Below are positions 5,506 to 64,000 of a stretch of DNA of 64,000 bases, in pieces. Both the position numbers and the translations under genes were made by a program. The stretch is from Escherichia phage PNJ1809-36, in sequence record MT944117.1; one strand, 5' to 3'. The number at the start of each line of letters is the position of its first letter. The stretch's first letter is position 1. The notes under the pieces are model-generated. The model saw only the letters and a program-made list of their open reading frames with translations, made no database searches and was not told where the DNA came from.

Positions 5506-5517
5506 TTTGTTCTCCTG

Positions 5518-5796
5518 TTAAAATGGTTCGTTAGTCTCCATCATATATTCTGCTTCTAGTTCTTCCATGTGCTTTCTAAATTGGAAAGCAATTTCTGCTA
5601 CAGTTACATTTAAATCTTTTTCAAAAACTTCTGTAGAGCCTTCATAAAAACGAATACCGTCGATTAAAAGCCCTCCGTGGTAATCCCAATCACTTTCACG
5701 AGAAAGCGGGTTAGGCTCTTCATAATAGTAATCCACCTCCACGACTAAGGCTTTCCCGTTACGAGTGGTGTATTCAAAATCAAAAGTGTTAATCAT
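5518..5796 (-). CDS. hypothetical protein (92 aa)
   Basis: ORF track; operon context; no motif recognised. Confidence 0.5.
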   Translation of the reverse strand: MINTFDFEYTTRNGKALVVEVDYYYEEPNPLSRESDWDYHGGLLIDGIRFYEGSTEVFEKDLNVTVAEIAFQFRKHMEELEAEYMMETNEPF

Positions 5797-6740
5797 TATA
5801 GCTCCTCAAATAAAAGTCTACGACGCTCATTCAACACATCAATGTGATAATGAGTCCTGACATACTTAGCTAATGCTAATCCTTTCTCCATGCAAACATC
5901 GGGAGCACTTAATAAGTATTCCGTAATATCTTTCCACTCGGAAGGTGTTTCAGCAAAGAATAACAAATCTTTAAACTCTTGTGTATGATAATTCTCACGA
6001 GGAGAACAGATCAAAGGTAAACCCTTAGCACCTGCCTCAAGAATTTTAAGATTGCTTTTTGCATTATTAAACACGTTATCAATCAATGGCGCAAGACTGA
6101 TTTGATGACCATCGTAAGATTCCATGTAGTTAGCATATGGTCTTACACCTTCATAAACACAAGTTGGTGCTACATTTTCTCTGATTACAGACCATTCACG
6201 ACTACTTAAAACTTCAGAATCCCTACGAAAACCACATATTGTAAGATCTTTACCAAAATCGGGCAAGATAGCCAAGTCTTGTTTATGTGTTTCACTTCCA
6301 GCCCAGACTAATGGAGTTTTGGAGTAGCGATCACGGGTCAACACAAATTGACCTTCATCGTAAGGAAGACCATTAGGGATTATGTGCACATTATCATTGT
6401 ATTGTGAAAGTTCAACTTGCAAAGCAGGTGTCGTAGTTGTAACAAGATCGCTGTGCTCTAAAAACCATTTTAAATGTTCACGAATACCTGATTCAAAAAT
6501 ACCTTCTAACATGTGTCCTTTTGGAATAACTAAAGAGTCATCCAAATCCATAACCATTTTAAAGCCTAGGTTTTTAAGGGCTAAAAAGCCCTCTTTACCT
6601 TTTGTTGGCACTCCGTTAAAAACGAAAACGTTGTGTTTAGGTTGTGAAGAGAACTGCCTTGAGTAAGGCAGCACTACCCTATGGAAATCGCAGACACTAT
6701 AATTGATTCCGTTACGATTGTCAAGAATTATTTGTCCCAT
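5796..6740 (-). CDS. glycosyltransferase-like protein, GT-B type, paralog 1
   Basis: 314 aa; paralog of 6748..7695 (shared DYHRIV, VVWAG, SNLKILEAGAKG-P-I-CS); C-terminal E-x-G-x-x-G-x-P-I pattern typical of GT-B sugar-nucleotide domain. Confidence 0.45.
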   Translation of the reverse strand: MGQIILDNRNGINYSVCDFHRVVLPYSRQFSSQPKHNVFVFNGVPTKGKEGFLALKNLGFKMVMDLDDSLVIPKGHMLEGIFESGIREHLKWFLEHSDLVTTTTPALQVELSQYNDNVHIIPNGLPYDEGQFVLTRDRYSKTPLVWAGSETHKQDLAILPDFGKDLTICGFRRDSEVLSSREWSVIRENVAPTCVYEGVRPYANYMESYDGHQISLAPLIDNVFNNAKSNLKILEAGAKGLPLICSPRENYHTQEFKDLLFFAETPSEWKDITEYLLSAPDVCMEKGLALAKYVRTHYHIDVLNERRRLLFEEL

Positions 6741-6747
6741 ACTTCAC

Positions 6748-7695
6748 CTACAAACTTTCAATAACCTGGCGTCGCAACTCGTTTGCATCTGCCAGATTAT
6801 AATGTGTTCGAACATGTTCAGCCAAGAACAAGCCACGATCTTCCCGATAGTTTGGATTGCGAAGAAGCTTAACAATTTCGTAATGCCATTCTGCTTTATT
6901 CTCTGCGTAAGCAACAGCGCGAGCATCTACAGGGTTAAAATAAGGTAATACCTTAGAACAAACAATTGGAATACCTTTTGCTCCAGCTTCCAGGATTTTG
7001 AGATTACTTTTACAATTATTAAAATCATTATCTACCAAAGGAGCTATAGCAATAGCATGACTTTCGTAAACACTCATGTAATTATCTAAATCTTTTACAG
7101 CGGCTTTATATTTGGCATTTGGTAAATTTCTGCGAATCTTAATCCACTCTTGTCCCGTGATGCTTTGTGATGCTTCATATCCCGCAATAGTAAGAAGTTC
7201 ATCATCGAAAGTATTAGAGACTAGTCGTAAGTCTGGTTCGTGACTAGCACCGCCAGCCCATACAACAGGGGTACCGGATGAACGATCATTTGACAAAGTG
7301 AATTGTCCGCTATCAAAAGGAAGTGCATTTCGGATCACAACAACATTCCTATTTAAGTGACGGATCTTATATGCCAAATATTCCGTAGTCACAATAACCA
7401 CATCAGCAAGCTTAACCATAGCTACAATAGCATGAGTGTTTGACTCGTATAGGCTTGCTAAATAATGTTCTGGATTAAGTTGGTAAAAATCATCTAAGTC
7501 TACAACAACCTTAACACCTTGACGTTTCAAAGATAAAACGTATTCTGCACCTTTAGAGTGGATACGGTTAAACACAACAACATCTTTCTTAGGTTGAATA
7601 TTATTGTTGTTAAATGGTATAACAATACGATGATAGTCACAACCGCTGTGAGGTTTTGCATCAATTTTTAGTTTAGACCATTTTTTATTTGACAT
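6748..7695 (-). CDS. glycosyltransferase-like protein, GT-B type, paralog 2
   Basis: 315 aa; tandem paralog of 5796..6740; KSNLKILEAGAKGIPIVCS. Confidence 0.45.
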   Translation of the reverse strand: MSNKKWSKLKIDAKPHSGCDYHRIVIPFNNNNIQPKKDVVVFNRIHSKGAEYVLSLKRQGVKVVVDLDDFYQLNPEHYLASLYESNTHAIVAMVKLADVVIVTTEYLAYKIRHLNRNVVVIRNALPFDSGQFTLSNDRSSGTPVVWAGGASHEPDLRLVSNTFDDELLTIAGYEASQSITGQEWIKIRRNLPNAKYKAAVKDLDNYMSVYESHAIAIAPLVDNDFNNCKSNLKILEAGAKGIPIVCSKVLPYFNPVDARAVAYAENKAEWHYEIVKLLRNPNYREDRGLFLAEHVRTHYNLADANELRRQVIESL

Positions 7696-8368
7696 GTGCT
7701 AGTGCCTCCTCATAGGAAATTCGGATTTTCCCATTTTTAATATCCTCTAAAGATGCTTTATATTCTTCCCAGTTAATCCCAATAGCAGCCTCTTTCTCTT
7801 CTTTTGTCAGGTTAGCAAAAGGCATAGGATTGTTTCCAAAAACATCGTCTGGGTGGATATAAGCCATGATACGAAGTGGACAAGGTGTTGCCTGAATACC
7901 ATGATTCAAACCAGCAGCTTGCAAACGGTGTCCCCATTCAGCATCTTCAAAACCATAACCGTGAGTGTAAGGACGGAAATAACCCATCTTCTCAACAACA
8001 GCACGAGAATACATTGCAAATTGACACATTGCAAGTTCCCAGAGAATAACTTCTCCTTTGCTTCCAACAACTTTATCTTTGAAGTACTCCGGCATACCAA
8101 AGAAATCCCATCCTCCAGAGACAGCTTGATCTACAAAATATGTTTCCCATCCCTCCATGACTGGGTAGCAATCGTCGTCAAAAATAAACCAATAATCATA
8201 ACCTTCTTCATAAAACTGGTGCATAAGTTCATTCCTGGCATAAGCTACACCTTTACGATCTGGATCGTTGAATACTCGAAAATCTGCACGTGGATCTGTT
8301 ACAAGGTAGTCTTTAAGTGGACGGACACCTACAGTGATAACACCCACTCCGATTTTAATATTTTCCAT
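7685..8368 (-). CDS. glycosyltransferase, GT-A (DxD) type
   Basis: 227 aa; DxD motif WFIFDDDCYP and YGFEDAEWGHR resembling the GT2-family (W/Y)G-x-ED-x-E...R motif; AGGAGAG SD. Confidence 0.5.
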   Translation of the reverse strand: MENIKIGVGVITVGVRPLKDYLVTDPRADFRVFNDPDRKGVAYARNELMHQFYEEGYDYWFIFDDDCYPVMEGWETYFVDQAVSGGWDFFGMPEYFKDKVVGSKGEVILWELAMCQFAMYSRAVVEKMGYFRPYTHGYGFEDAEWGHRLQAAGLNHGIQATPCPLRIMAYIHPDDVFGNNPMPFANLTKEEKEAAIGINWEEYKASLEDIKNGKIRISYEEALAHVK

Positions 8369-8376
8369 TTTCTCTC

Positions 8377-8940
8377 CTAAATAGTTTTACTGTGATCATG
8401 ACAGTGCAATAAATGATGTATAGACCATTGAGGATTTATTTGACCTAATCTGTAAATGTGAAACAGATACATTCCCCGCATCAATCCTAACCTCTTTCCT
8501 TTTTCATGTAAAGTGCGAGAGAAAATTAAGTCGAATTGGATAGATTTTTCTTCGAAAGGAATTTCATTCCACAATGATTTTCTAAAAAGCAAAAAGAAAC
8601 CTGCCAGAGGTGTTCCGAAAGGAACTTCTTCAACACTCACTTTATGATATTCTCTTGCAATCTTAGCATATTCTATATGGTTTAGAATATCGGGATCATC
8701 GTTAATTTGGTTAGAGAAAAGCTGATAACCACTACCTAACCTGTTACAAGTTGCACCTATTACATCAAAAGGCGGGTTTGACATAACAAGCTCTTCAAGC
8801 ATAGATGGTTGATCAGGTAGGAGGAACATTGTATCGGTATCTCTTAAACACACCCAACTATCATCTGGAAGAACGGCAATGGCTTCATTGATAGCCTTGC
8901 CGATATTTCCTGTCAGATAGGGAGTAATATAATAAATCAT
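8377..8940 (-). CDS. putative nucleotide-sugar transferase (GT-A-like)
   Basis: 187 aa; candidate DxD (CLRDTDTMFL); GGAGGGG SD. Weak call. Confidence 0.35.
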   Translation of the reverse strand: MIYYITPYLTGNIGKAINEAIAVLPDDSWVCLRDTDTMFLLPDQPSMLEELVMSNPPFDVIGATCNRLGSGYQLFSNQINDDPDILNHIEYAKIAREYHKVSVEEVPFGTPLAGFFLLFRKSLWNEIPFEEKSIQFDLIFSRTLHEKGKRLGLMRGMYLFHIYRLGQINPQWSIHHLLHCHDHSKTI

Positions 8941-8956
8941 TCTCCCCTCCGTTATA

Positions 8957-9148
8957 TTAACTGTCAGCTACAATCCCACGTTTAATCATTTCTTGTTGGA
9001 TCTGAATCACACGATCTCGTGCTTCCATATATTCTTTAAAAGATTCTTGGAGATGGTCACGGGCTACGTCCCGTAGTTTAATCAGTTTGTCGTTTGTCAC
9101 TTCTTGAAGAGAGATCTCGCCAGTTTCATTGGTCCCAAGCGTTTTCAT
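8957..9148 (-). CDS. hypothetical protein (63 aa)
   Basis: ORF track. Confidence 0.4.
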   Translation of the reverse strand: MKTLGTNETGEISLQEVTNDKLIKLRDVARDHLQESFKEYMEARDRVIQIQQEMIKRGIVADS

Positions 9149-50805: not shown

Positions 50806-50833
50806 AAGGGCGCACCAAGCGCCCTTTCTTTTT
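50806..50833 (+). terminator. intrinsic terminator, copy 2 of the duplicated 28-mer
   Basis: aagggcgcACCAAgcgcccuu followed by UCUUUUU. Confidence 0.7.
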
Positions 50834-51038
50834 GCCCGAATAATGTTGATAGATTCCGCCTATGAAAAACCGACACAGAACAAAACTGAATAGATCGCGG
50901 TATCGAGCTAATCAACCATTAAACGAATAACCATACCTCCCAGGGTAACAGGTTGTTAGAGAGCCATTTAGAGCGGTTAAAATCGATCAACAACCAACAA
51001 CAAACCATCAAAAACACCCTTTTACCTCCTTTCTAGTG

Positions 51039-51058
51039 CAATGATAACCATTATCATC
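51039..51058. promoter_or_regulatory. Fur-box-like operator C
   Basis: gcAATGATAAcCATTATCatc. Confidence 0.45.
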
Positions 51059-51383
51059 TATCCATGTTTATCTATGCAATATAAGTGCATAACTATAATG
51101 TTGATAATAGTTCGCAACAACTAACTAACCAACAACCTAAAACAATAAGCAAACTAATCATAATCAAAGGAATAATAGCAAGATGATTGATAACGACAAA
51201 CAATCAAACCATGATGAATACTAAGCAAGATAACGATAACACGACAAAACAACCAACTAACGAACAATAACAAACGAAACCATTAAAATAACAACTATTA
51301 GCAAAATAGTGCCTGAATGAAATCATTACAAAACGAATCATTCACAGGATCATCATTAGCACGCTATGCCGGACACATAGCGA

Positions 51384-51511
51384 GCTAATAATAAGCCAAC
51401 TACACCCCAACAATCATAACCATCGGTGATGGTTATTTCTTGTTACTGCGTAGCTTGCAATAATTGCAAGCGTAATGACGCTTACACTTATTGCGCTGGC
51501 TTATTATTAGC
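51384..51511. repeat. nested inverted repeats
   Basis: Outer arms gctaataataagccaac / gctggcttattattagc; inner palindromes aaccatcGGTgatggtt, cttgcaataattgcaag, agcgtaatgacgct. Confidence 0.55.
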
Positions 51512-51826
51512 ATTATATGTAATTACCAAGATCATAACATTAGCGCAATAACAATAATCATTGTGGTAATTACAAGATGAAATAATCGCTATCGCTCAAA
51601 GATTATTAGCAAGATGAATAATTGCACGTAGCAACATGAGCGAATAGCGACAGGTTGCATAGTGTGCACATAGATGTACACGCAGTGTATAAACATACAG
51701 GAAAATAAAGGCTAATCTTTTGGGGGCGAATACTATCGCGTAGCGATATGTTGAGCATCTTCTCTTAAACGTAAATAAAATCAGAAAATTCTTGATTTAT
51801 TTTAATTTTTATGTTAATAAACGTTT

Positions 51827-51845
51827 AAATAATAATCATTCTCAT
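51827..51845. promoter_or_regulatory. Fur-box-like operator D
   Basis: taAATAATAATCATTcTCat. Confidence 0.35.
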
Positions 51846-52006
51846 ATGAATAATAGTCTGCTTGTCATGAGCGGGATTAGTTGACAATGTTCCGTCATAT
51901 GATGAGGTTGCCAAACCATTGATAAATAAGTGTTTGTGTGATTTATAATCAAGCGGCCCACCTTGTCGCTATGTTGGCATGAGCCTTGCATAAGTCATTG
52001 AATACG

Positions 52007-52025
52007 AATGATAATTATTCTCATT
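52007..52025. promoter_or_regulatory. Fur-box-like operator E
   Basis: AATGATAATtATTcTCATT. Confidence 0.4.
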
Positions 52026-52284
52026 CGCATGATATTTGGGAATTGTCGCTGCGTGGACCTGACGGCCCGAAAATTCGCGTTAAGCACTTCTTACGTATGT
52101 GCCATGATTTTTGCCATATGATATTGATTCTACTAGATATTCTTGCCATGATTGCCATGAAACAGGGTGTCCCGAAATAATCTCTCCCTGTAGATATTTT
52201 GGGTTACTTTTTATACAAGAGTGGGGTGTCAAAAATAATTGGTATATATGGGATAATTGATAGGAATCCCCTATGATAATTCGA

Positions 52285-52313
52285 TTGTAATTCCCTAAGA
52301 TTGATCGTATGAT
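52285..52313 (+). promoter_or_regulatory. candidate sigma70-like promoter (TTGTAA-17-TATGAT)
   Basis: About 55 nt upstream of the ATG at 52367. Confidence 0.35.
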
Positions 52314-52366
52314 GTTGGTGATTGATGATTGCCATGAAAGATGGCTAACGATGAGAGGAGATTATC

Positions 52367-52741
52367 ATGCAAGAGAGTAAAAATGTTCCGTTGAGTAGTG
52401 CAACATTGCTTCGCTTCTATAAAGCATGGATTGCCAACTATCCTGCAATGAATCGCACAACGAGTGGCTTATGTGGTTGTCTGGTAGATTATGTAGATGA
52501 TTTTGTTGGTGAGACAACTAGAGAAGAAGATAGAAGATGGCGTGATCATTTGTTGGACCGTTTGAAATATGAAATGAGGAAACAATTTACATGTGCAGGG
52601 CTGGACTACAATCTTCCGTTCAATGCAGATTGCATGGATTACCTTTCAGAGTGTATAAACTTGGCGTGTCATACCAACACGTTACGTCTTCAATGGGTGA
52701 AAGACAGAATCGAAGATGCAAATAATGCTTGCATTGAATAA
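52367..52741 (+). CDS. paralog family C member 1 (124 aa)
   Basis: ORF track; shares FY-x-W...GLC-C-L...EM...AGL...PF...L-x-W-VKDR with 57054, 60283, 61048. Confidence 0.5.
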   Translation: MQESKNVPLSSATLLRFYKAWIANYPAMNRTTSGLCGCLVDYVDDFVGETTREEDRRWRDHLLDRLKYEMRKQFTCAGLDYNLPFNADCMDYLSECINLACHTNTLRLQWVKDRIEDANNACIE

Positions 52742-52812
52742 AAATGTCTGTATGATGGTTTGCATGAGAGGTGCGATATCGCGCATAACAAACAGCTAAT
52801 GAGGAGATTGGA

Positions 52813-53025
52813 ATGCATAGCATGAAACGCATGAAAATTCGTATTGAGAATGATGGTGGTTATAAAGGATTGGCACATGCAAAATTTCCACTTGTGCTGG
52901 AAGCTACGGTGGAATACAGTGGGCTTGCTCATGTGCGATTCTCGAAGATGATGGAAGTGCAGGAGTGGTTTTGGGACGAGATAGATGCACGAGAAGGGGG
53001 AAGATTATGTTTTCTTTCCTCATGA
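52813..53025 (+). CDS. hypothetical protein (70 aa)
   Basis: ORF track. Confidence 0.45.
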   Translation: MHSMKRMKIRIENDGGYKGLAHAKFPLVLEATVEYSGLAHVRFSKMMEVQEWFWDEIDAREGGRLCFLSS

Positions 53026-53056
53026 ATATGAAATCGTTTATTAAAGGTTGTGTGCA

Positions 53057-53296
53057 ATGATCACACCACAACAGAATGAAGCAGCAATGGATCTTCTTGA
53101 TAGTTTGTATTTCGATAATTGGTACTCTGAATGTGAATGGATGAATATGCAAACTCTGAAAGAGAAGACAGAAGCGTTGATTACCGTAGATCAATTTCTT
53201 GCAGAGACGGAAAGAATGAATTATGATATGGCATCTCGCGCACGACGCGTTTCCATTTTCAATAAAATGTTAGCATTATGGGGAGGTAGAAAATGA
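53057..53296 (+). CDS. hypothetical protein (about 79 aa)
   Basis: ORF track trimmed from TTG to ATG. Confidence 0.45.
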   Translation: MITPQQNEAAMDLLDSLYFDNWYSECEWMNMQTLKEKTEALITVDQFLAETERMNYDMASRARRVSIFNKMLALWGGRK

Positions 53297-53754
53297 GACA
53301 ATTCACTATACTGGCAGCTTATGTGCAATGTGTTCACGATTATGTTAGTGCTCATACAGGTTTGCTGGAAGTTAATAGTAAAATTGAAGGCAATATGGGT
53401 ACTGTCTATGTGCAACATACTTTATCTAACGTGCCGTATAAAGTGTTCACTGTTGTAGCTGCCGATTACAATCGTGTAGATGTGCGTTTCTTGGATCATA
53501 ATTTTCGTAACGCACTAGATAATATCGAAGATTATCTTCCCGTGAAACCTTTGTCATTTCCACCGAGTCGTGCAAATAATGTAGTGACAAACCTTAATGA
53601 AAGGAATGTGGCTATGCACAAAAAAGTCCGTCAACTGAAAACGCTGATGGAAATGCAAGAAGAGATTGAAAAAGAACTGAAAGAAGATTTTGGTATGCTT
53701 CCAAAAGACGCTTTGAAATGGTATGATGAACTAGGAGGAGAAAGTTATGAATAA
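53293..53754 (+). CDS. hypothetical protein (153 aa)
   Basis: ORF track. Confidence 0.45.
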   Translation: MRQFTILAAYVQCVHDYVSAHTGLLEVNSKIEGNMGTVYVQHTLSNVPYKVFTVVAADYNRVDVRFLDHNFRNALDNIEDYLPVKPLSFPPSRANNVVTNLNERNVAMHKKVRQLKTLMEMQEEIEKELKEDFGMLPKDALKWYDELGGESYE

Positions 53755-53777
53755 AGAGACTACTGTATATTTAGTGA

Positions 53778-53921
53778 CTAAGAACACCCCAGGTTGGAAT
53801 CAGTGCTCAACACCTCGAAAAAATTCTCTCCAATGATAGCAGCAATACTGTTATCAAAGGTAGAATATAGTCGCATATAATCTTCATCCTGGAAACGGTA
53901 GACATGACCTTCTTTAAACAT
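53778..53921 (-). CDS. antisense-oriented small protein (about 47 aa)
   Basis: ORF track 53778..54002 trimmed to ATG with AAGGAG SD; only leftward gene in this block. Confidence 0.35.
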   Translation of the reverse strand: MFKEGHVYRFQDEDYMRLYSTFDNSIAAIIGENFFEVLSTDSNLGCS

Positions 53922-54005
53922 TGTATGCTCCTTCTTGTTCAAGAGTGAAAGGAATGATTTCACCATAGCTGTATCGCATAGCATCAACTTCTGCTTCTGC
54001 ACGTT

Positions 54006-54389
54006 GTGCTAGTTCTAGTGTTGCACAGATTTTATATGGGGTTGTTGAGCACTGATGCAAATGGTAATATCTTGTCAATTGTTGTGATAGGGAGAGACGG
54101 TATTATCACTGCTAGTGATGGGGATCGTTACATAATCAATTCTGCTCATATAGATTATTTTGTTGACGGTGGTATTCGTGGTGGTCGTGGAAAACCCCAA
54201 GAAGAACCTGTTGATACAACAAAAGAAGAGTGGTATGTTGTAATGACTGATGACACCTGTATTTCTGGATTTGAAAGTTATGAAGAAGCTTTGAAAGAAG
54301 CAGCAGAGCATAAAATGGCTAATCCTACAGAAGAGGTTGAAGTTTATAAACGTTTGGTTGTTGCTACCATCGGCGTATCTTTTGTTTAA
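54006..54389 (+). CDS. hypothetical protein (up to 127 aa, start uncertain)
   Basis: ORF track; no convincing SD at GTG 54006 or ATG 54036. Confidence 0.35.
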   Translation: MLVLVLHRFYMGLLSTDANGNILSIVVIGRDGIITASDGDRYIINSAHIDYFVDGGIRGGRGKPQEEPVDTTKEEWYVVMTDDTCISGFESYEEALKEAAEHKMANPTEEVEVYKRLVVATIGVSFV

Positions 54390-54401
54390 AAGGGGAATGT
54401 T

Positions 54402-54839
54402 ATGTTTAAAGTTAATGCTGTTTACTGTTTCAAAACTAAAGCTGCCCGTGAAGCTTTCTCTATGATCTCTGATGAAAATTTCAAAATGGCAGCTTTGATT
54501 GAAGGGTCTTGTTTCCGCGTCGAAGATGTTAGTGAATCAGGCTCTGTTTGCTCATTGACTTTATTGGACAGCGGGGATATTATTGAAGCTGGACAGTATC
54601 CGTTCAGAAGTTGGGGGATATTGTTAGCTCGCGGAGAGCGTAACTTTTTTATGTGCGTGTCTGCGGGGGAAGTTGTGAAAGAAACTAAGGATGTTTCTGT
54701 TTACAATTCTGAATTTATAAGTTATAGTGAGTATCAACATCTGGAAGGCATTGTTGGTCACTTGTTATCTCTGATTAATATTGAATGTGACTTGCCTGAA
54801 TCATTGAAAGAAGAGTTGAAAGCATTAGATCTGCTATAA
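54402..54839 (+). CDS. hypothetical protein (145 aa)
   Basis: ORF track. Confidence 0.45.
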   Translation: MFKVNAVYCFKTKAAREAFSMISDENFKMAALIEGSCFRVEDVSESGSVCSLTLLDSGDIIEAGQYPFRSWGILLARGERNFFMCVSAGEVVKETKDVSVYNSEFISYSEYQHLEGIVGHLLSLINIECDLPESLKEELKALDLL

Positions 54840-54866
54840 TGTTTCACACAACGAAAGGAGAATAAG

Positions 54867-55166
54867 ATGAATCTGACTGAACAGTTACGCCGTATTGCAA
54901 AAGAAGCTTCCTTCAACTTCCCTGTTGAAGAAGTGATCGAGACATGTTTTGCTGAAGCACGAGCGGGAAACTCTTCAAGAAATTTCACGCCATCTGATTT
55001 TGGTTTGGATAATTCTCCTACTCACCCAGGGGAAATCTACAATCAGGTGAAATGGATGGATGAAGCAGTAGCAATTCTTCGTGAGCGTGGGCTTATTGTT
55101 TATAAAGAAATGGATCTGAACGGGGCATACGAGTGGATCACTATTGATTGGTCGGAGGTGAAATAA
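54867..55166 (+). CDS. hypothetical protein (99 aa)
   Basis: ORF track. Confidence 0.45.
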   Translation: MNLTEQLRRIAKEASFNFPVEEVIETCFAEARAGNSSRNFTPSDFGLDNSPTHPGEIYNQVKWMDEAVAILRERGLIVYKEMDLNGAYEWITIDWSEVK

Positions 55167-55375
55167 TGGTTACTATCACGTTGACAGTTACACAAGAGCA
55201 AGCAGAAGAATTACGTGATGCACTGGCATATATGGGACGCGCTTATTATATGCCTCACAAATCTCAAGATGTTTTTGCTACAGCCGTTGAGAAAGCTTTA
55301 AACAAATACCGAGAAACTCATGCCGTTCCTAAAGTATCAGCGGAAGAGTTTGGCACTTGGCACGAAGTTCACTGA
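55166..55375 (+). CDS. hypothetical protein (about 69 aa)
   Basis: ORF track trimmed to ATG. Confidence 0.4.
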   Translation: MVTITLTVTQEQAEELRDALAYMGRAYYMPHKSQDVFATAVEKALNKYRETHAVPKVSAEEFGTWHEVH

Positions 55376-55385
55376 GGAGGTTTCG

Positions 55386-55619
55386 ATGAAAGGTAACAAG
55401 ATGAAAGTTAATCAAGTGCCGAGCGCATACACTTTGTGGCTTGCGCGAGCGTTACACCAGACGATCAAAAACCCTAAGAAGCCAATGAAGAGCGGGAAGA
55501 AGTTTATGTCTAAGGGCAAAACAACCTTTGGCTTCACTCGTATGTCTGTTAAGATGAAAAGACTGGGGTACAAGCCAAACTACGCTCGTTACCCTTCTGA
55601 ATACAACTGGTTTGACTAA
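55386..55619 (+). CDS. hypothetical basic protein (about 77 aa)
   Basis: ORF track trimmed to ATG with GAGGAGG SD. Confidence 0.45.
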   Translation: MKGNKMKVNQVPSAYTLWLARALHQTIKNPKKPMKSGKKFMSKGKTTFGFTRMSVKMKRLGYKPNYARYPSEYNWFD

Positions 55620-55631
55620 AAGGAGAAAGCA

Positions 55632-56105
55632 ATGGCAGGTTTGAAACTGGAGATGTTGACAAAGCAAGAATTTGTTCCCGAACACGGTGAAACTTACATT
55701 GCTTTCTTGATTAGTGATTTTTATGGGGATTTAGAGTATGTTGAACTGGAGTGTGAGTTTCACTACCAAATGATTGACGCAGAAACTGGTTATTGTTTGG
55801 GTACGTCTGCGGTGTATAATGGTGATAATGGCATTCCTTTTCATACCCCAATGAGGTACGAAGCGAAAAGCCGATTCAAACTTCTCACAGAAGAAGAAAA
55901 AGAGACATATAAATATCACGAAGAGGAGGATCAACGCTTCTGGTGGGAGAAAACTTGGTTCCTGTCTGATCGCCGTAATCTTCAGATTCACCCAGAAGAA
56001 CTGGATGAAATGTCCATCGGGATTATGAAGAAGAAAGACTTCATGTACCAGGTGAGAGAAGCTAATAAGTTCCGTGTTGCAACTAAAGAGGAGAACAAAA
56101 CATGA
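55632..56105 (+). CDS. hypothetical protein (157 aa)
   Basis: ORF track. Confidence 0.45.
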   Translation: MAGLKLEMLTKQEFVPEHGETYIAFLISDFYGDLEYVELECEFHYQMIDAETGYCLGTSAVYNGDNGIPFHTPMRYEAKSRFKLLTEEEKETYKYHEEEDQRFWWEKTWFLSDRRNLQIHPEELDEMSIGIMKKKDFMYQVREANKFRVATKEENKT

Positions 56106-56320
56106 AAACATTTATTCGCGTAAAACATGATCCAAACAGCAGTTACCCATACGCGTATGTTGAACGTCATGAAGGAGCCTATTACACCATAAAACGTAAA
56201 GTCCCAACTGATACAGGGTTTAACTTTGATGTTATTGCGCTGGATGATCAAGGTGTTGATAATCTGGTGAATGCATTACTCGCATTGAAGGAAGTACGAT
56301 ATGAAAATCAGACTAATTGA
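56102..56320 (+). CDS. hypothetical protein (72 aa)
   Basis: ORF track. Confidence 0.45.
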   Translation: MKTFIRVKHDPNSSYPYAYVERHEGAYYTIKRKVPTDTGFNFDVIALDDQGVDNLVNALLALKEVRYENQTN

Positions 56321-56492
56321 AAAGGGTGATACCATCTTCGAAACCCGTAAAGGTGAAATCACAGAGATTCCAGAAGAAAGATCAACAATCCTTGTCGATG
56401 GTGTTTTGAAATATTGCTGTAGTGTCTATAAATCTTACGAGAAGGATCAGTATGGCGATCCAGAAATCTGGTTTGTAGGAGATGTGTATTAA
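56301..56492 (+). CDS. hypothetical protein (63 aa)
   Basis: ORF track. Confidence 0.4.
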   Translation: MKIRLIEKGDTIFETRKGEITEIPEERSTILVDGVLKYCCSVYKSYEKDQYGDPEIWFVGDVY

Positions 56493-56501
56493 GGGGGTAA
56501 A

Positions 56502-56861
56502 ATGAGCGGAGAATTTCGTAAAGTAAAAGATATCTCCTTGTTTGAAGGAGATGTTGTTAGGATGAACGGAAGATTGTTAAAATTTCACCAGTTGATGCAT
56601 CCAAGCACAACACGTAACGTGATGGTCATCTTCCAGGATGCTTTTGCTGCCAGCGATTACACTCCATATTCAGCAGAAACTGAAGTATATTTTGAAGGAT
56701 ATGTTGATCGACCACTTGCAAAAGAGATGTGGGACAAGTATCATATAAACATTACAGATTCACGGGGTGTCTTCTGGAACTACCCTAGTGAAGGTAAAGT
56801 GGCTTTCGATTCTTGTGATCGTTTAGCCGAAGAGATTGCCGAATGGCGCGATACTCACTAA
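56502..56861 (+). CDS. hypothetical protein (119 aa)
   Basis: ORF track. Confidence 0.45.
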   Translation: MSGEFRKVKDISLFEGDVVRMNGRLLKFHQLMHPSTTRNVMVIFQDAFAASDYTPYSAETEVYFEGYVDRPLAKEMWDKYHINITDSRGVFWNYPSEGKVAFDSCDRLAEEIAEWRDTH

Positions 56862-56876
56862 AACAGGAGAAAGATT

Positions 56877-57053
56877 ATGGCTACTTTTCAACAACTGAAA
56901 GATGTTTCACGTTTAGTAAGAAAAATCCGAGAAGCAGACGCTGCTGTGCGGAATGCATTAACGCCAGCAGAGCGTGAAGATCTTGAAGAGGAGGTGAAAA
57001 CAGCCGAGAATGCTTTTGCTGCGTATCTTTCAACACTGTACACAGGAGGTTAA
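56877..57053 (+). CDS. hypothetical protein (58 aa)
   Basis: Manual translation MATFQQLKDVSRLVRKIREADAAVRNALTPAERED... Confidence 0.4.
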   Translation: MATFQQLKDVSRLVRKIREADAAVRNALTPAEREDLEEEVKTAENAFAAYLSTLYTGG

Positions 57054-57368
57054 ATGTCAGAAGAACTAAAAGAATTTTATCAGGCATATCATAACTGGCT
57101 GTTAGCTGGCGCTCCAGATAATAATCCTTTCTGGCACGATAAAGGATTATGTAGTTGCCTCTACCTTTGGACTGGTGGTTACGATGATCTAAATTATGAA
57201 ATGCAAATGCAATTTCGAGAAGCAGGGTTGTCTGAAGAATACCCGTTTGATGACGGAGACTGGTTTAAATATGATTTTGCACAAAGAAACGGGCTATTGC
57301 ATTTGAATGCTGCCCGTATAAAATGGGTAAAAGATCATGCTACACAGGAGGATGTGCAATGCCAATAG
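57054..57368 (+). CDS. paralog family C member 2 (104 aa)
   Basis: ORF track; FYQAYHNWLLAGAP...GLCSCL...PF...IKWVKD. Confidence 0.5.
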   Translation: MSEELKEFYQAYHNWLLAGAPDNNPFWHDKGLCSCLYLWTGGYDDLNYEMQMQFREAGLSEEYPFDDGDWFKYDFAQRNGLLHLNAARIKWVKDHATQEDVQCQ

Positions 57369-57559
57369 TGTTTAGTTTCTTGGTAATTGTTATGGTTGTT
57401 CTTTTCGCGGCATGGCTTTGGGATTTTGACCCAGGAGCAGCGCAGCAAAGAGCTACAGACTGGAAAGAACAGTGTATTGTGCTCAAACATGAACGAAATG
57501 CGGAGAAATTTCTTGACCTGGAGTGTGATCGCCTTGTAAGATACAAGCAAGATAAATAA
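57359..57559 (+). CDS. small membrane-anchored protein (about 66 aa)
   Basis: ORF track trimmed to ATG with AGGAGGA SD. Confidence 0.4.
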   Translation: MPIVFSFLVIVMVVLFAAWLWDFDPGAAQQRATDWKEQCIVLKHERNAEKFLDLECDRLVRYKQDK

Positions 57560-57573
57560 CCTTGAGGTGCAAA

Positions 57574-57762
57574 ATGGTAATTGAGATTAAACTTGAATAT
57601 GCTGGGGCTGTTGCCCTGATCGCACAAATGTTGGGAGCAAAGATTGAAGAAGTGTATATCAATGCCTGGAGTGTAGAGATTGATGTTCCTATGGATAACA
57701 TTGCTAATCGCTTGCTGGTGGCAGAGTGTGAACGCACCAACATAATCTACAAAGGAGCATAA
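57574..57762 (+). CDS. hypothetical protein (about 62 aa)
   Basis: ORF track trimmed to ATG. Confidence 0.4.
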   Translation: MVIEIKLEYAGAVALIAQMLGAKIEEVYINAWSVEIDVPMDNIANRLLVAECERTNIIYKGA

Positions 57763-57763
57763 T

Positions 57764-57985
57764 ATGAAAATCAGAGTTTGTGATGTATTGGGTTATGTTG
57801 GTTTTAAGAATGTTCAGATTCCTTTTGTTGTTGAAGCACATCTTGTTAGCGATGATATGACAACATTCTTTGTTACGATAGAAGAAATGTCCAAAGTTGA
57901 GGGATGGGAGTGGTTTGAAGAAGATGTTTGGGAAGGTTGTGATTACGTATTTTTCTCTGATGAAGTGAATGTTCTTTCGGAGTAG
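57764..57985 (+). CDS. hypothetical protein (73 aa)
   Basis: ORF track. Confidence 0.45.
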   Translation: MKIRVCDVLGYVGFKNVQIPFVVEAHLVSDDMTTFFVTIEEMSKVEGWEWFEEDVWEGCDYVFFSDEVNVLSE

Positions 57986-57987
57986 GT

Positions 57988-58194
57988 ATGTCTTGTTTTA
58001 CAAAAGCAGTATCCATATGTAAGAAACAGTATGAAAGTGATTACGGGATATTTAATATTCCAGCGGATCATACGGAGTATTGTTCATGTGGTGGCAGAAT
58101 GAAGAAAACAGTGATTTATGCGGATAATGAAGATGAACTTGTTCCGGTTATGGTTTGCAAAGCTTGTCATTCTGTTAAAACATTAAAAGCGTAA
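57988..58194 (+). CDS. small zinc-ribbon-like protein (68 aa)
   Basis: ORF track; CSCGG...CKAC. Confidence 0.45.
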   Translation: MSCFTKAVSICKKQYESDYGIFNIPADHTEYCSCGGRMKKTVIYADNEDELVPVMVCKACHSVKTLKA

Positions 58195-58289
58195 GGAGTC
58201 GGGACACCCGACGATTGGAGCTAAAAATTTTGCGTACAACCCTTTCCGCCCAACAGGGGCGCGTCGGGTAAATAAAGAGGAGAGTTTAT

Positions 58290-58688
58290 ATGAAAAAGAT
58301 CATCGTAGGTTTATTGTTACTCATTGCATCACTCGGAACAGCAAATGCGTCTCAAGTTTATGAGTGTGTGTCAGATGTGGTTGTTAAAAATCTGAAAGGT
58401 GAAGTGATTTCTGGTCCTAAGAAAATGGCTTCTGTTGTCATTAATAAAGATAACTCCTTTATCCTTAAAAATTCAGGTGGTGCTTTGATGAGTGGCATTC
58501 TGCAATACACAGGAGAAAAAAGTAAAGATGGTAGTGCTATGTATGGTTCACAACAGTTTATTGGCACTACTGAAGTTGTGATGATGCGCACAGAGTATCG
58601 AGACACTTTAGCTTGGTTTGCATTTCTAAAAAATGATAAAACAATAACGAATGTTCTTACTCTAGAAGCTGATTGTACGCAACGATAA
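58290..58688 (+). CDS. secreted protein (132 aa)
   Basis: ORF track; signal peptide MKKIIVGLLLLIASLGTANA. Confidence 0.5.
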   Translation: MKKIIVGLLLLIASLGTANASQVYECVSDVVVKNLKGEVISGPKKMASVVINKDNSFILKNSGGALMSGILQYTGEKSKDGSAMYGSQQFIGTTEVVMMRTEYRDTLAWFAFLKNDKTITNVLTLEADCTQR

Positions 58689-58697
58689 GGGGGATTT

Positions 58698-59153
58698 ATG
58701 ACTAAAATGAGACATTACGCTGTAAACTGCAACGATGCTTGGCGTTTGTGTCCTGATGATCCGACAGAAGGTACATTTGTAAGATATGAGGATTATAAAG
58801 AGTTATCGGATGCTGTAATCGCATTGTTAACTGATATCCGTTCACGTTATCCAGGACAAGATTTCACTTGCCCTCACATCAAACTTCTTGCTTGCCTGGT
58901 AGAAGGTGAGAAAGAAGTGGAAGATGGCTTCAAGCGTGTAGAGTATCAAGGTGAAACTTTAGATGTTCCTGAATTTGTTAATTATATTGCAACAGATTCA
59001 AGTGGCGAGCGTTATGGTTACACTCATAAACCGGAGATTCCAGATTTCGCTTATGCGTGGCGTATTCCTTATGAAGTTTTTAATGTTGCAGATTGCTGGT
59101 ATTTAGGAGAAGGAAACAACCTTAATTGGCGTGATTCCTTGGTTCAGGTTTAA
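58698..59153 (+). CDS. hypothetical protein (151 aa)
   Basis: ORF track. Confidence 0.45.
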   Translation: MTKMRHYAVNCNDAWRLCPDDPTEGTFVRYEDYKELSDAVIALLTDIRSRYPGQDFTCPHIKLLACLVEGEKEVEDGFKRVEYQGETLDVPEFVNYIATDSSGERYGYTHKPEIPDFAYAWRIPYEVFNVADCWYLGEGNNLNWRDSLVQV

Positions 59154-59157
59154 CAAT

Positions 59158-59421
59158 ATGAAAGAGACATTGCCAGCAGCATACCGTTTGAATGATGAAC
59201 GTATTTGGGAGTGGACCGACGTTTCTTGTTTTTACCCTGAAATAGTTCAATATTGGCGAGCAAAAGGGTGTGTTGTAGTTATCAACCCATGTGGACCAGT
59301 GGATGAAGATTGCTTGTATCTCGATGGAAAGTGGCACAGTTATTGTCGCTGGCCTTTTGAGTGGATGTGTAAAGAAGATCTCCCAGAGGGTTGGGAGTAT
59401 CCAAAAGCAAATAGGAGATAA
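59158..59421 (+). CDS. hypothetical protein (about 87 aa)
   Basis: ORF track trimmed to ATG. Confidence 0.4.
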   Translation: MKETLPAAYRLNDERIWEWTDVSCFYPEIVQYWRAKGCVVVINPCGPVDEDCLYLDGKWHSYCRWPFEWMCKEDLPEGWEYPKANRR

Positions 59422-59422
59422 T

Positions 59423-59785
59423 ATGTCTGAAGATTTTGTTGAAGTGTTTGTCAAAGACGAAGAAACTGGTTTAGGCACAGGTTTCATTTGTGAAGAAACC
59501 TTTAAACGTGAACAAGAAAAAGCTATTCTTATGCGAAACTATGATCACGCATTAGAACAATGGAAAAATGCAGAACAAAAATGCAAAAACCTTTATGCAG
59601 AAAATAGAAAACTACAAGATCAAATGGAGTTGTTAGCTATCAGTTTACGATCTCTCATTTTGGCTGTAGAAGATGGTTTTAAAAATCCAGATGGTTTTCC
59701 TGTGAGCGATATTGAACATGATTTGTATCTTGCTCGTGGTGCTTACTTCTATGTTAAACAGAAGTCTGTAGAAGGAGAGAAGTGA
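59423..59785 (+). CDS. hypothetical coiled-coil protein (about 120 aa)
   Basis: ORF track 59291..59785 trimmed to ATG with AGGAGA SD. Confidence 0.45.
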   Translation: MSEDFVEVFVKDEETGLGTGFICEETFKREQEKAILMRNYDHALEQWKNAEQKCKNLYAENRKLQDQMELLAISLRSLILAVEDGFKNPDGFPVSDIEHDLYLARGAYFYVKQKSVEGEK

Positions 59786-59982
59786 TGGAAGAAAAACTGG
59801 AACGTATTATCGAGTTAGCCATGTCTATTGGCTACGACGATTGTTTTCTCCAAACTATTGGAGAAACAGAGAACGATTACGACTCTTGGGTGAAAGAGTT
59901 GGAAGAACTTAAAACTTCCTTGATTGCTGACTTTGCTGAAGCAGAGGATAAAGCAGATCGTTACAACTATCTGTGTCGATAA
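59785..59982 (+). CDS. hypothetical acidic protein (about 65 aa)
   Basis: ORF track. Confidence 0.4.
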   Translation: MEEKLERIIELAMSIGYDDCFLQTIGETENDYDSWVKELEELKTSLIADFAEAEDKADRYNYLCR

Positions 59983-59985
59983 GCC

Positions 59986-60013
59986 TTGACATTTATTTTA
60001 TGTATGGTATACA
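59986..60013 (+). promoter_or_regulatory. sigma70-like promoter (TTGACA-16-TATACA)
   Basis: Directly after the stop at 59982, about 30 nt upstream of the ATG at 60045. Confidence 0.5.
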
Positions 60014-60044
60014 TACATTATCAACGTGAGCAAGGTGGTGTAAT

Positions 60045-60317
60045 ATGAATAAAGATCGGTTTCTTTCTTTAGTCGCGGAAGCTCCTTTTGATGTTCTTGG
60101 GGTGAGATTATGGAAAGACAGAAACTATGGGTTAGATGTTCAAACATACTCTCTTTGGTTGGTTGGGGAGCACAGTTTAGATGAAAGCTTGTGCATGGGT
60201 AGGGATTCTCGTTCCCTCTGTTTAAAGTTCAGAAGCTTAGAACGCGCAAACAAAGAGCAAGAAAAACTAACGAGGTGGCTAAATGAAAACAAGCGCAAGG
60301 TTGATGGAGTTTTATAA
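60045..60317 (+). CDS. hypothetical protein (90 aa)
   Basis: ORF track. Confidence 0.45.
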   Translation: MNKDRFLSLVAEAPFDVLGVRLWKDRNYGLDVQTYSLWLVGEHSLDESLCMGRDSRSLCLKFRSLERANKEQEKLTRWLNENKRKVDGVL

Positions 60318-60609
60318 AATTTATTTAGCATGGATTGATGTTGGTGCTCCTGATGGTAAACCTTTTCGGCGGGATTGCGGTTTGTGTGCCAACTTATTCG
60401 ACTATGTGCACGCGGATGGCTACAATCCCCTTATAACAACCTTGTCAGATGAAATGCACGCACAGTTTTACCACAAAGGGTTGAGTCAAGAATTACCCTT
60501 CAATGAGAACTACGATGCATATGTCTTAGAATCAGATGCAGAGGTATGTCACCTGAATGTGGACAGGATTAATTGGGTAAGAGATCGTATTGCAGAGGAG
60601 GATGAATAA
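60283..60609 (+). CDS. paralog family C member 3 (108 aa)
   Basis: ORF track; FYKIYLAWIDVGAP...GLCANL...PF...INWVRDR. Confidence 0.5.
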   Translation: MKTSARLMEFYKIYLAWIDVGAPDGKPFRRDCGLCANLFDYVHADGYNPLITTLSDEMHAQFYHKGLSQELPFNENYDAYVLESDAEVCHLNVDRINWVRDRIAEEDE

Positions 60610-60836
60610 TGTCGGATTATAACTGGTATGAACTTGAGGCTGTTTGTCAGTTTTATGACTCAATAGTTCTGCGTGATCCAATCTGTCAAGAATTGAGTCG
60701 CCGTGCAAGTGCATTGGCAATCCGTGTTAAAATAAACGGTTGGAACGCAGATTTGGAAAAAGAGTTGGAATTTCTCTTAGAAAACACGCGGGTCTTCCGC
60801 AAAGTGTTCCCTGAATGGTTTGAGATGGAAGAATGA
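60609..60836 (+). CDS. hypothetical protein (75 aa)
   Basis: ORF track. Confidence 0.45.
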   Translation: MSDYNWYELEAVCQFYDSIVLRDPICQELSRRASALAIRVKINGWNADLEKELEFLLENTRVFRKVFPEWFEMEE

Positions 60837-61051
60837 TCATGTGGATTGTGCGTCTTAAGTATGATGGCAAGTTTCCGTGGGAGAAAGATGTTTGTGCTTG
60901 TGATTCGGCAGCACATGCCAAAGCAGCGGGTCAGGCAGTAGTTGACATGTATAACAACACTTCCGTTGATCCAGAAATGGCAGGTGTTACAATGAGCATG
61001 TTCACTTACTATTCTTTTGAGGTTTACTATCATGAAGGAGAGTGGAAATGA
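60833..61051 (+). CDS. hypothetical protein (72 aa)
   Basis: ORF track. Confidence 0.4.
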   Translation: MIMWIVRLKYDGKFPWEKDVCACDSAAHAKAAGQAVVDMYNNTSVDPEMAGVTMSMFTYYSFEVYYHEGEWK

Positions 61052-61368
61052 GCGAAGAACTATTAACATTTTACCGCACGTATTTGGCATGGTTGGAAGC
61101 TGGTGCTCCTGAAGGCGAACCGTTCACCCGTTGCACAGGTTTGTGCTCGAACCTCTATCATTTTTACGATATGGGTGAAAGCGAACGATACGAACCCGTA
61201 CTGGATGAAATGCATGAGCAGTTCTACCGCAAAGGTTTGGTTATGGTGTTGCCTTTCAACAGTAATTTTGGAAAGTACACCTTAGAAGCGGAAAAAAGCC
61301 GCTGTCACTTGAATGTGGATCGTGTGAACTGGGTAAAAGAACGTGTAGCAGAAGAAATAATTGGTTGA
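61048..61368 (+). CDS. paralog family C member 4 (about 106 aa)
   Basis: ORF track trimmed to ATG with AAGGAGAG SD; FYRTYLAWLEAGAP...GLCSNL...PF...VNWVKER. Confidence 0.5.
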   Translation: MSEELLTFYRTYLAWLEAGAPEGEPFTRCTGLCSNLYHFYDMGESERYEPVLDEMHEQFYRKGLVMVLPFNSNFGKYTLEAEKSRCHLNVDRVNWVKERVAEEIIG

Positions 61369-62806: not shown

Positions 62807-63478
62807 ATGAAAAAGTTTGTTGTTTACAGTCGTCTTTCTAAACAGAAAAAAGGTGAGGCACAATATGGTATGGAGAGCCAAGAGAATGATATCCGTTACT
62901 TCTTAGACTCTGTGCCTGATGCGGAAGTTATTGGTCAATTTTCTGAATACTATTCGGGTAAGGGCGATTGGAAGCAACGTAAGGAACTGGTTAAAGCGGT
63001 TGAAATGTGTAAAGCTACCGGAGCAACTTTATTGGTAGCTAAAGTTGACCGCTTGGGTCGTAACAACGCCTCTGTAGCAACTCTTCTAGAGATGATCGAT
63101 GTTAAGATAGCCATCATGCCAGACGCAGATAAAATGGTTATACAGCTTCTGTCTGTTCTGGCTGAACAAGAAGTTAGAGGTATTGCTGATCGTATTAAAA
63201 AGGGTCTTGCTGTAGCAAAAAGCAAAGGTGTTTTATTAGGCAGTGCTAATCCTAAAACTGCCGCTGCACGTAGAAAAGGGAAAATGGAATACAACTCTGT
63301 TAAAGCAGACGCTTTTGCAGAGACATTCCGTGAACGCTTGGAGATCCTTAGAGATTTAAATACACCTTACAAAACTATTGCTGAAAAATTCAATAGTAAG
63401 AAAATAGCAACAGCACGTGGTGGTAAATGGGATGCTAAAACTGTTTCTCGTTTGTGTGCCAGACTGAACATTAAATAG
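62807..63478 (+). CDS. small serine recombinase (resolvase/invertase family)
   Basis: ORF track 62756..63478 trimmed to ATG; N-terminal VVYSRLSKQKKGE resembles the catalytic-Ser motif; VAKVDRLGRN. Confidence 0.6.
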   Translation: MKKFVVYSRLSKQKKGEAQYGMESQENDIRYFLDSVPDAEVIGQFSEYYSGKGDWKQRKELVKAVEMCKATGATLLVAKVDRLGRNNASVATLLEMIDVKIAIMPDADKMVIQLLSVLAEQEVRGIADRIKKGLAVAKSKGVLLGSANPKTAAARRKGKMEYNSVKADAFAETFRERLEILRDLNTPYKTIAEKFNSKKIATARGGKWDAKTVSRLCARLNIK

Positions 63479-63486
63479 GAGAGGAT

Positions 63487-63909
63487 ATGAAACAAGAAAA
63501 TGAATCTGTAGATCACTTAATCATGCTGTCAGCCCTTTTTGCCGGATGGGACGTATTTTTTGAAAATTTGTTCAATTCTTCTACAGATGGTTCCGATTTT
63601 ATGCGCCAGTTTAAACGACGAACTGTTGAGGACTATGCTTTCTATTCAGGTCGGATTGAAAAAGGTTACGAAGATACAAATACAACACTCACCATTAAAG
63701 TTTTAGATGTGATGTTTAGTGTTATAGATGCTATCGACGAAAGTCTTCCGATCCTAGACAATTGTAATACGAAAGCCTATGTTTACAAAATAGCTCGTGC
63801 TTATGTGTCTGCAAACAGTTGTCTTCTTTCCACCCAGATTGCCGTGAACAATCTTGCCAACTTGTTTGATGAAGGAGAAACTTTTTATGACAATCGATTT
63901 GAAGTGTAA
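63487..63909 (+). CDS. hypothetical protein (140 aa)
   Basis: ORF track; AGGAGAGG SD. Confidence 0.45.
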   Translation: MKQENESVDHLIMLSALFAGWDVFFENLFNSSTDGSDFMRQFKRRTVEDYAFYSGRIEKGYEDTNTTLTIKVLDVMFSVIDAIDESLPILDNCNTKAYVYKIARAYVSANSCLLSTQIAVNNLANLFDEGETFYDNRFEV

Positions 63910-64000
63910 GAGGATTCTTTTAGATTTCTATAATAATTGGTTAGAACACCTCCGTCTCTTTCCAAGAGAAAGTGGTTACGCTGATGTTGGCTTATGCCGA

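Follow-up and report, generated by a model that had tools for sequence, protein, structure and literature searches.

Old, constrained copies of the coliphage N4 gp3 family in the small-gene block of Escherichia phage PNJ1809-36

Introduction

Several small phage proteins with known activities act on the host side of infection. T7 Ocr and the ArdA-type proteins are DNA mimics, Tad1, Tad2 and Acb2 are sponges, and T4 Arn ('anti-restriction nuclease', PDB 3WX4) is a DNA-mimic inhibitor of McrBC and H-NS. Coliphage N4 encodes a further small protein, gp3 (YP_950481), at 1.2 kilobases (kb), in the early region transcribed by the virion RNA polymerase, after gp1 and gp2 (the gene of the RNA polymerase II cofactor) and before the RNA polymerase II genes; the N4 reviews give no role for gp3. 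In Phapecoctavirus, the anti-TIR protein Atd1 has been reported and is a MazG-like nucleotide pyrophosphatase. We wanted to look at four small genes, here called paralogs A to D, in a stretch of 64,000 nucleotides from Escherichia phage PNJ1809-36 (record MT944117.1), the whole of which is referred to below as the window. By their sequences, these four genes are real, old copies of phrog_2510, a phage-restricted family to which N4 gp3 belongs.

N4 gp3 resembles the window copies over the whole domain, in its length of about 104 amino acids, in its GLC, PFN and HLNxxRIxW motifs, and in its place among the N4 early genes. Contrarily to them, it is present in one copy per genome instead of 5-10, and it is only 20-33% identical in protein to the window paralogs. 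Ocr, the ArdA-type proteins, Tad1, Tad2 and Acb2 are like the family in being about 100 amino acids long, mostly acidic, encoded in early regions, restricted to phages and free of partners, but none of their solved examples resembled the family in sequence or fold, and the strongly conserved polar motif set and the many old paralogs per genome are untypical of them. T4 Arn is likewise a small, acidic phage protein, and one of the database members in the paralog-A cluster, CAM6581850.1, has the name "Anti-restriction nuclease" from its source; the direct comparison with T4 Arn and PDB 3WX4 gave no sequence or fold relationship, and this identity was rejected. Atd1 comes from the same phage genus as the window copies, but it is MazG-like whereas the four proteins match neither MazG nor any other Pfam family, and the two are unrelated.

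Many deposited genomes already contain genes of the family under the name "hypothetical protein", and a PHROG exists for them. In the literature searched, there was no functional mention of phrog_2510 or of the accession numbers, homologues being listed only as hypothetical proteins, and the main text of phage essentiality screens named neither N4 nor Phapecoctavirus. Here we report on the homology of the copies, their fold prediction, the selection acting on them, their copy dynamics and their genomic position. What is new here is the connection with N4 gp3, the extent of the family including its fused forms, an apparently unprecedented fold, the set of conserved residues, and purifying selection combined with recombinational turnover of the copies.

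Results

The window holds four complete copies and the start of a fifth

An original prediction, made from the letters of the window, had placed four paralogous genes of 104-124 amino acids at 52367, 57054, 60283 and 61048. All four were recovered as open reading frames (ORFs) at exactly these positions on the + strand, and the features of the family in the window are as follows.

52367..52741, + strand: paralog A, 124 amino acids; most divergent copy of the window; phrog_2510 E = 2.3e-25; Shine-Dalgarno motif
52386..52399, + strand: crossover zone in gene A, a 14-nucleotide overlap of the segments matching phAPEC8_0018 and 0019, with shared 'PLSS' codons
57054..57368, + strand: paralog B, 104 amino acids; most strongly conserved slot; phrog_2510 E = 8e-29
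60283..60609, + strand: paralog C, 108 amino acids; phrog_2510 E = 3.5e-32; structure modelled
61048..61368, + strand: paralog D, 106 amino acids from the ATG, with an alternative GTG start at 61042; phrog_2510 E = 1e-30
63887..64000, + strand: paralog E, 38 N-terminal codons (MTIDLKCKRILLDFYNNWLEHLRLFPRESGYADVGLCR...) up to the window end; orthologue of phAPEC8_0051 (121 amino acids)

Each of the four complete ORFs is preceded, 5-9 nucleotides on its 5' side, by a Shine-Dalgarno-like motif. Their four-way alignment contains 23 invariant columns and reproduced the motifs noted previously (FY..(Y)..W, GLCxxL, EMxxQF, GLxxxxPF and HxNxxRxxWV), together with GAPxxxPF in B, C and D. Paralog A is without GAPxxxPF and has 13 additional residues inserted after helix 2, before helix 3, while paralog D is closest to C (about 50% identity). 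Pairwise Smith-Waterman scores were 100-306, versus 26-27 +/- 4.7 for 1000 shuffles, none of which scored above 57, and z went from 15.8 for the weakest pair (A/B) to 60.1 for C/D, so that the similarity is decisively significant against the shuffled control. When a hidden Markov model (HMM) built from the four copies was run over the 656 six-frame ORFs of the window, those four were the only complete ORFs matched. The same HMM gave a weak match at 63848-64000, which is the N-terminus of paralog E: its first 38 codons and the 13 codons upstream are identical to phAPEC8_0051, which itself matches the family HMM with E = 1.8e-18. Therefore, the homology of the four genes held, while their number did not, a fifth copy starting at 63887 being cut by the window end.

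The copies belong to the family of N4 gp3

All four copies matched phrog_2510, a PHROG without assigned function, each over nearly the whole protein (E = 2.3e-25 to 3.5e-32). N4 gp3 matched the same PHROG with E = 7.8e-24, and phAPEC8_0018, 0051 and 0054 did so at about 1e-26 (E = 3.5e-26 for 0051). When a family profile of 92 sequences was compared with N4 gp3, hhalign gave a probability of 99.4% and E = 5e-21 over 98 aligned columns. When 1.84 billion cluster representatives were searched exhaustively with a profile, 1,964 clusters (50% identity) were matched at E <= 1e-3, with 1,032 at E <= 1e-10. Many of these clusters are tandem fusions of two or three domains, which hints that the domains might associate with each other, and in a few members a hydrophobic segment is present at the N-terminus or a zinc ribbon at the C-terminus. 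By tblastn, the family was found in 258 phage records, all of them phages of Proteobacteria, including N4-like, T7/phiKMV-like, Drexlerviridae, rV5-like, Justusliebigvirus and jumbo phages, and a single match was obtained among 72,556 plasmids. A degenerate DNA pattern for HLNxxRIxWVKD hit two viral contigs only. In the jumbo Burkholderia phage BcepSaruman (MK552140), a double fusion (1581-2396, 271 amino acids) and a triple fusion (8001-9035, 344 amino acids) lie 6 kb apart within a block of unannotated small genes.

Scans of Pfam and NCBIfam gave nothing above the curated threshold for the four copies, for 10 distant members or for any of the 92 members, and no Pfam or NCBIfam family was matched by more than one of the 92. 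PADLOC gave no match for the four copies, and its models matched nothing consistently among the distant members and the 92 either. Matches to YaeQ (E = 0.08) and PifA (E = 0.02) were considered as noise. The fusion partners (zinc ribbon, N- and C-terminal extensions) matched only PHROGs without known function, a word-indexed protein search with broader alignment brought no informative names, and complete E. coli genomes contained nothing nearly identical in DNA to a temperate-phage-like fusion gene of the family.

Conserved residues and predicted fold

Conservation was computed over the 92 diverse members and is given in paralog C numbering. Seven residues are 100% invariant: W17, L34, C35, P72, F73, R95 and W98. 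At least 90% conservation was found for L7, F10, Y11, Y14, G21, G33, E57, Q61, F62, Y80, N92 and V99 (N92 97%, Q61 95%, E57 92%), and H90 and R30 reach 85% and 82%. Within the window, C35, P72, F73, R95 and W98 are among the columns invariant in all four copies, and W17 is present in all four as well, offset by a gap in paralog A. That so many polar residues are conserved suggests a defined functional site and not a mere scaffold. The window copies have isoelectric points (pI) of 4.5-5.2; for the 92 members the median is 5.45, 67% being below pI 6.

To look at the fold, an AlphaFold2 model of paralog C was built from an alignment of 34 sequences. The model consists of five helices (5-19, 34-42, 50-64, 77-85 and 93-107), with a predicted local distance difference test score (pLDDT) of 95.2 and a predicted template modelling score (pTM) of 0.87. 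A natural tandem fusion, P0046, was modelled as two such domains (pLDDT 93.6, pTM 0.73), and both halves carry the motifs. Among the viral predicted structures of BFVD, the paralog C model had 18 matches at E <= 1e-3 (template modelling scores of 0.77-0.87), all of which are uncharacterised phage proteins of the same family. Against solved structures, no match was obtained to any solved anti-defence protein (Ocr, ArdA, Tad1/2, Acb2, Gad1 and others). Winged-helix DNA-binding domains (MarR, RosR, Rex), which would call for a significant superposition together with a basic DNA-binding surface, were also considered and rejected. The model thus points to a fold of the N4 gp3-like domain that is apparently unlike any solved structure.

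Copy number, recombination and selection

A 10-kb query over the genes matched 126 phage records, the best being Escherichia phage Mt1B1_P17 (96.9% identity, 97% coverage). This phage and the other best-matching records whose classification was consulted are Phapecoctavirus (Stephanstirmvirinae), phAPEC8-like E. coli myoviruses of about 150 kb, and the window too comes from a Phapecoctavirus. The family HMM was run over the genomes of these relatives, and the copies in the block were counted.

This window: 4 complete copies and 1 truncated
SF1-1: at least 5 copies
ESCO5: 5 copies (without slot D)
Ro121lw: 6 copies
phAPEC8, Mt1B1_P17 and AV125: 7 copies each
PsgM04F: 10 copies

The slots of the family are syntenic among the relatives. 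Gene A is made of two parts. On its left, window 52201-52399 corresponds to phAPEC8 6856-7054 (99.5%), that is upstream DNA and the first 33 nucleotides of phAPEC8_0018. On its right, window 52386-52753 corresponds to phAPEC8 7369-7736 (98.4%), the body of phAPEC8_0019. On this sequence evidence, gene A is a recombinant, a single gene left by the collapse of the tandem pair phAPEC8_0018/0019. The metagenomic protein P0022 is also a chimera of 0018 and 0019, but a different one. Tandem arrays were also found elsewhere, with two copies after homologues of gp1 and gp2 on an N4-like contig and three copies on another viral contig.

Between the paralogs of the window, identity is 24-50% for the proteins and 48-60% for the DNA, so that synonymous sites are saturated between them; at such distances they are old duplicates, which purifying selection retains. 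In a neighbour-joining tree, which was poorly resolved, the paralogs were scattered among metagenomic members, and only C with D and the A-type array clustered locally. To measure selection, we looked at the orthologues of each copy across seven relatives (sets of 93-99% amino-acid identity) and calculated pooled Nei-Gojobori ratios of nonsynonymous to synonymous substitution rates (dN/dS). The values were 0.157 for A, 0.018 for B, 0.227 for C and 0.200 for D, and those of 32 neighbouring genes were 0.008-0.53. The family had been described as repeatedly duplicated and rapidly diverging. Duplication was borne out by the 5-10 copies in relatives, the tandem arrays and the double and triple fusions, but the orthologue ratios of 0.02-0.23 speak against rapid divergence. 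Altogether, the sequences indicate that the family is old, retained and constrained, and that its turnover is by local duplication and by unequal or homologous crossover between copies.

Position in early regions

N4 gp3 is not the only homologue located among early genes. In N4-like phages of Achromobacter, Erwinia, Rhizobium and Delftia, a family copy lies 1-6 kb from the left end, and in phiKMV/T7-like phages, the early genes include JG068 gp5 and RSB1 ORF5, the latter directly 5' of a gp0.7-like kinase gene. Such early-region homologues in N4-like and T7-like podoviruses, which are unrelated types, fit a host-directed role. In the window, the four best sigma-70 matches (11/12) are all on the + strand and none is on the - strand. 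Clustering of neighbouring genes at nine diverse loci revealed no recurrent partner of known function, and the family therefore appears to act without an obligate partner.

The small-gene block and other features of the window

Near 32 kb the coding strand switches, and the four genes belong to the long series of small + strand genes beyond this point. The equivalent block of phAPEC8 has about 70 genes, nearly all annotated as "hypothetical protein", with annotated host-dependent promoters, and ends at a terminator before an oppositely oriented Sir2-like gene. Gene content differs among relatives, slot D being missing in ESCO5 and the 0018/0019 pair being collapsed in the window. The original prediction of an accessory block is thus upheld: about 70 small unannotated + strand genes, variable in content. 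A Pfam scan of 10 neighbouring proteins recognised a single one, a serine recombinase (resolvase, PF00239, E = 5e-18) at 62807-63478 (+), inside the block; relatives name it resolvase, DNA invertase or, wrongly, 'methionine ABC transporter ATP-binding protein'.

On the 5' side of gene A, about 1.5 kb (approximately 50830-52366) hold only short ORFs of 50-64 amino acids, and the phAPEC8 counterpart (5512-7022) is unannotated. A strong bidirectional terminator-like hairpin at 50806-50826 precedes this region, in which an Rfam scan found nothing above threshold and a repeat scan found only short repeats at chance level. In the middle of the block, 58290-58688 (+) encodes a 132-amino-acid, probably exported protein with an N-terminal signal-peptide-like segment (MKKIIVGLLLLIASLGTANA); its name in one relative, 'RNA ligase', looks wrong. 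The gene at 58698-59153 (+, 151 amino acids) has a homologue (31% identity, E = 4e-10) beside a family member in Acinetobacter phage vB_AbaM_AB4P2 (2544-2825), a pairing that points to a further small gene family travelling in the same kind of early block.

A second pair of small paralogs, 52813-53025 and 57764-57985 (+; 70 and 73 amino acids), is 33% identical over 66 residues (E = 2e-7). These two genes lie shortly downstream of A and B, respectively, and may be what is left of a two-gene cassette that was duplicated. Three more paralog pairs are located on the - strand: 29312-29617/29617-29928 (44%), 5796-6740/6748-7695 (41%) and 10881-11150/12172-12516 (34%), the first two being adjacent tandem pairs. 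Finally, records named Campylobacter phage B15, Acinetobacter vB_AbaM_ABPW7 and Pseudomonas PsgM04F match this group of E. coli phages closely. DNA identity is about 96% for B15 and vB_AbaM_ABPW7, and the paralog C protein is 81.5% identical in PsgM04F; their host labels are probably wrong or due to contamination.

Discussion

The reading that we favour, tentatively and with slightly less than even confidence, is that the copies are early, stand-alone, soluble binders of host components, serving host takeover or counter-defence, with paralogs that differ in specificity; here the timing, the binding and the specificity are what we infer. The copies would be made early in infection, each acting alone as a soluble cytoplasmic protein and binding a host component stoichiometrically. 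The framework of Trp17, Gly-Leu-Cys35, Pro72-Phe73, Asn92, Arg95 and Trp98 would provide a common scaffold and site, and target specificity would differ from one paralog to the next through the variable segments 39-56, 63-71 and 75-90 and their indels. Targets specific to each paralog would explain why 5-10 diverged copies are kept and are neither homogenised nor lost. In favour of this reading we count the identity, size and phage restriction of the family, the early position of homologues together with the promoters of the phAPEC8 block, the purifying selection and Shine-Dalgarno motifs of the slots, their old divergence and synteny, the acidity, the confident fold that both fusion halves retain, and the lack of a recurrent neighbour of known function. 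The original prediction had spoken of an arsenal for host interaction or anti-defence. A host-directed role fits the early position, while anti-defence is plausible only, since neither PADLOC nor a solved anti-defence structure gave a match.

Several results weigh against stand-alone binding of host components. The searches of PADLOC, Pfam, NCBIfam and solved anti-defence structures provided no homology link to any host target or defence system. Early expression in the window phage is deduced only from position and promoter-like sites, and the total of promoter-like sites in the window is not above shuffled expectation (47 vs 40 +/- 7). The low dN/dS is not what an arms race with proteins chasing their targets predicts. 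Moreover, the conserved polar residues (Cys35, Arg95, Asn92, Gln61, Glu57 and His90) are at least as compatible with a fixed site for a ligand or for catalysis as with a protein-protein interface.

This last point is at the heart of the main rival explanation, according to which the proteins bind or modify a small molecule (a nucleotide-derived signal, a metabolite or a metal) or act as catalysts, with paralogs differing in ligand or kinetics. The fixed site would be formed by the invariant Cys35, Arg95, Trp17 and Trp98 and the near-invariant Glu57, Gln61, Asn92, Tyr80 and His90. Conservation of polar residues is indeed unusually strong among members that are otherwise 25-45% identical, the same residues are retained in both halves of the tandem fusions, and a chemical target that does not change would agree with the low dN/dS. 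However, the fold matched no sponge, enzyme or metal-binding protein among the solved structures, and Pfam gave no enzyme signature. About 15% of the members have Tyr, Phe or Pro in place of His90, and neither Cys89 nor His102 is conserved, which makes a classical metal site unlikely. Known immune-signal sponges are normally single-copy, in contrast to the 5-10 copies here, and on the whole we consider a small-molecule or catalytic role unlikely. A role inside the phage, as cofactors of transcription or replication or as DNA-binding regulators of the early-to-middle switch, would recall N4 gp1 and gp2, but the proteins are acidic, the family is spread over phages with different transcription strategies, and slots are dispensable in close relatives; such a role seems to us quite improbable.

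A version that follows the original prediction, in which diversifying selection makes the arsenal evolve fast while an arms race with host defences goes on, draws support from the turnover in copy number, from the chimeras made by recombination between copies and from the location in a variable small-gene block. We nevertheless give it little credence, as the pooled orthologue ratios are not above those of neighbouring genes and the divergence of the paralogs is ancient, comparable to the distance from N4 gp3. At the other extreme, the copies might be decaying or selfish duplicates without function, in line with a family that has no known function and with slots that some relatives do without. 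Contrarily to this, frames are intact and Shine-Dalgarno motifs are present in all copies, purifying selection is strong (0.018 for B), and the motifs are kept across about 2,000 clusters. The confident predicted fold, the residue conservation and the dN/dS effectively refute decay, which we regard as very remote.

Returning to binders of host components, one may go further and consider that the new fold founds an unrecognised class of early effectors in phages of Alpha-, Beta- and Gammaproteobacteria, in which one Cys/Arg/Trp-centred site, present in 5-10 copies or in double and triple fusions, would neutralise different host factors or defences. This extension appears doubtful to us, though it is conceivable. 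With about 2,000 clusters at 50% identity and no curated model, the family is among the larger ones of this kind in the phage "dark matter". It is found in the model phage N4 and in therapeutic-candidate phages of E. coli, Klebsiella, Achromobacter, Burkholderia and Ralstonia. The sharply conserved residue set offers obvious targets for mutagenesis, and the batteries of 5-10 copies are a natural specificity panel. Through N4 gp3, the question can be approached experimentally in a classical phage that has only one copy, a defined early operon and established genetics. If a function in host takeover or counter-defence is true, the family would be relevant to the prediction of host range for widely used therapeutic phages.

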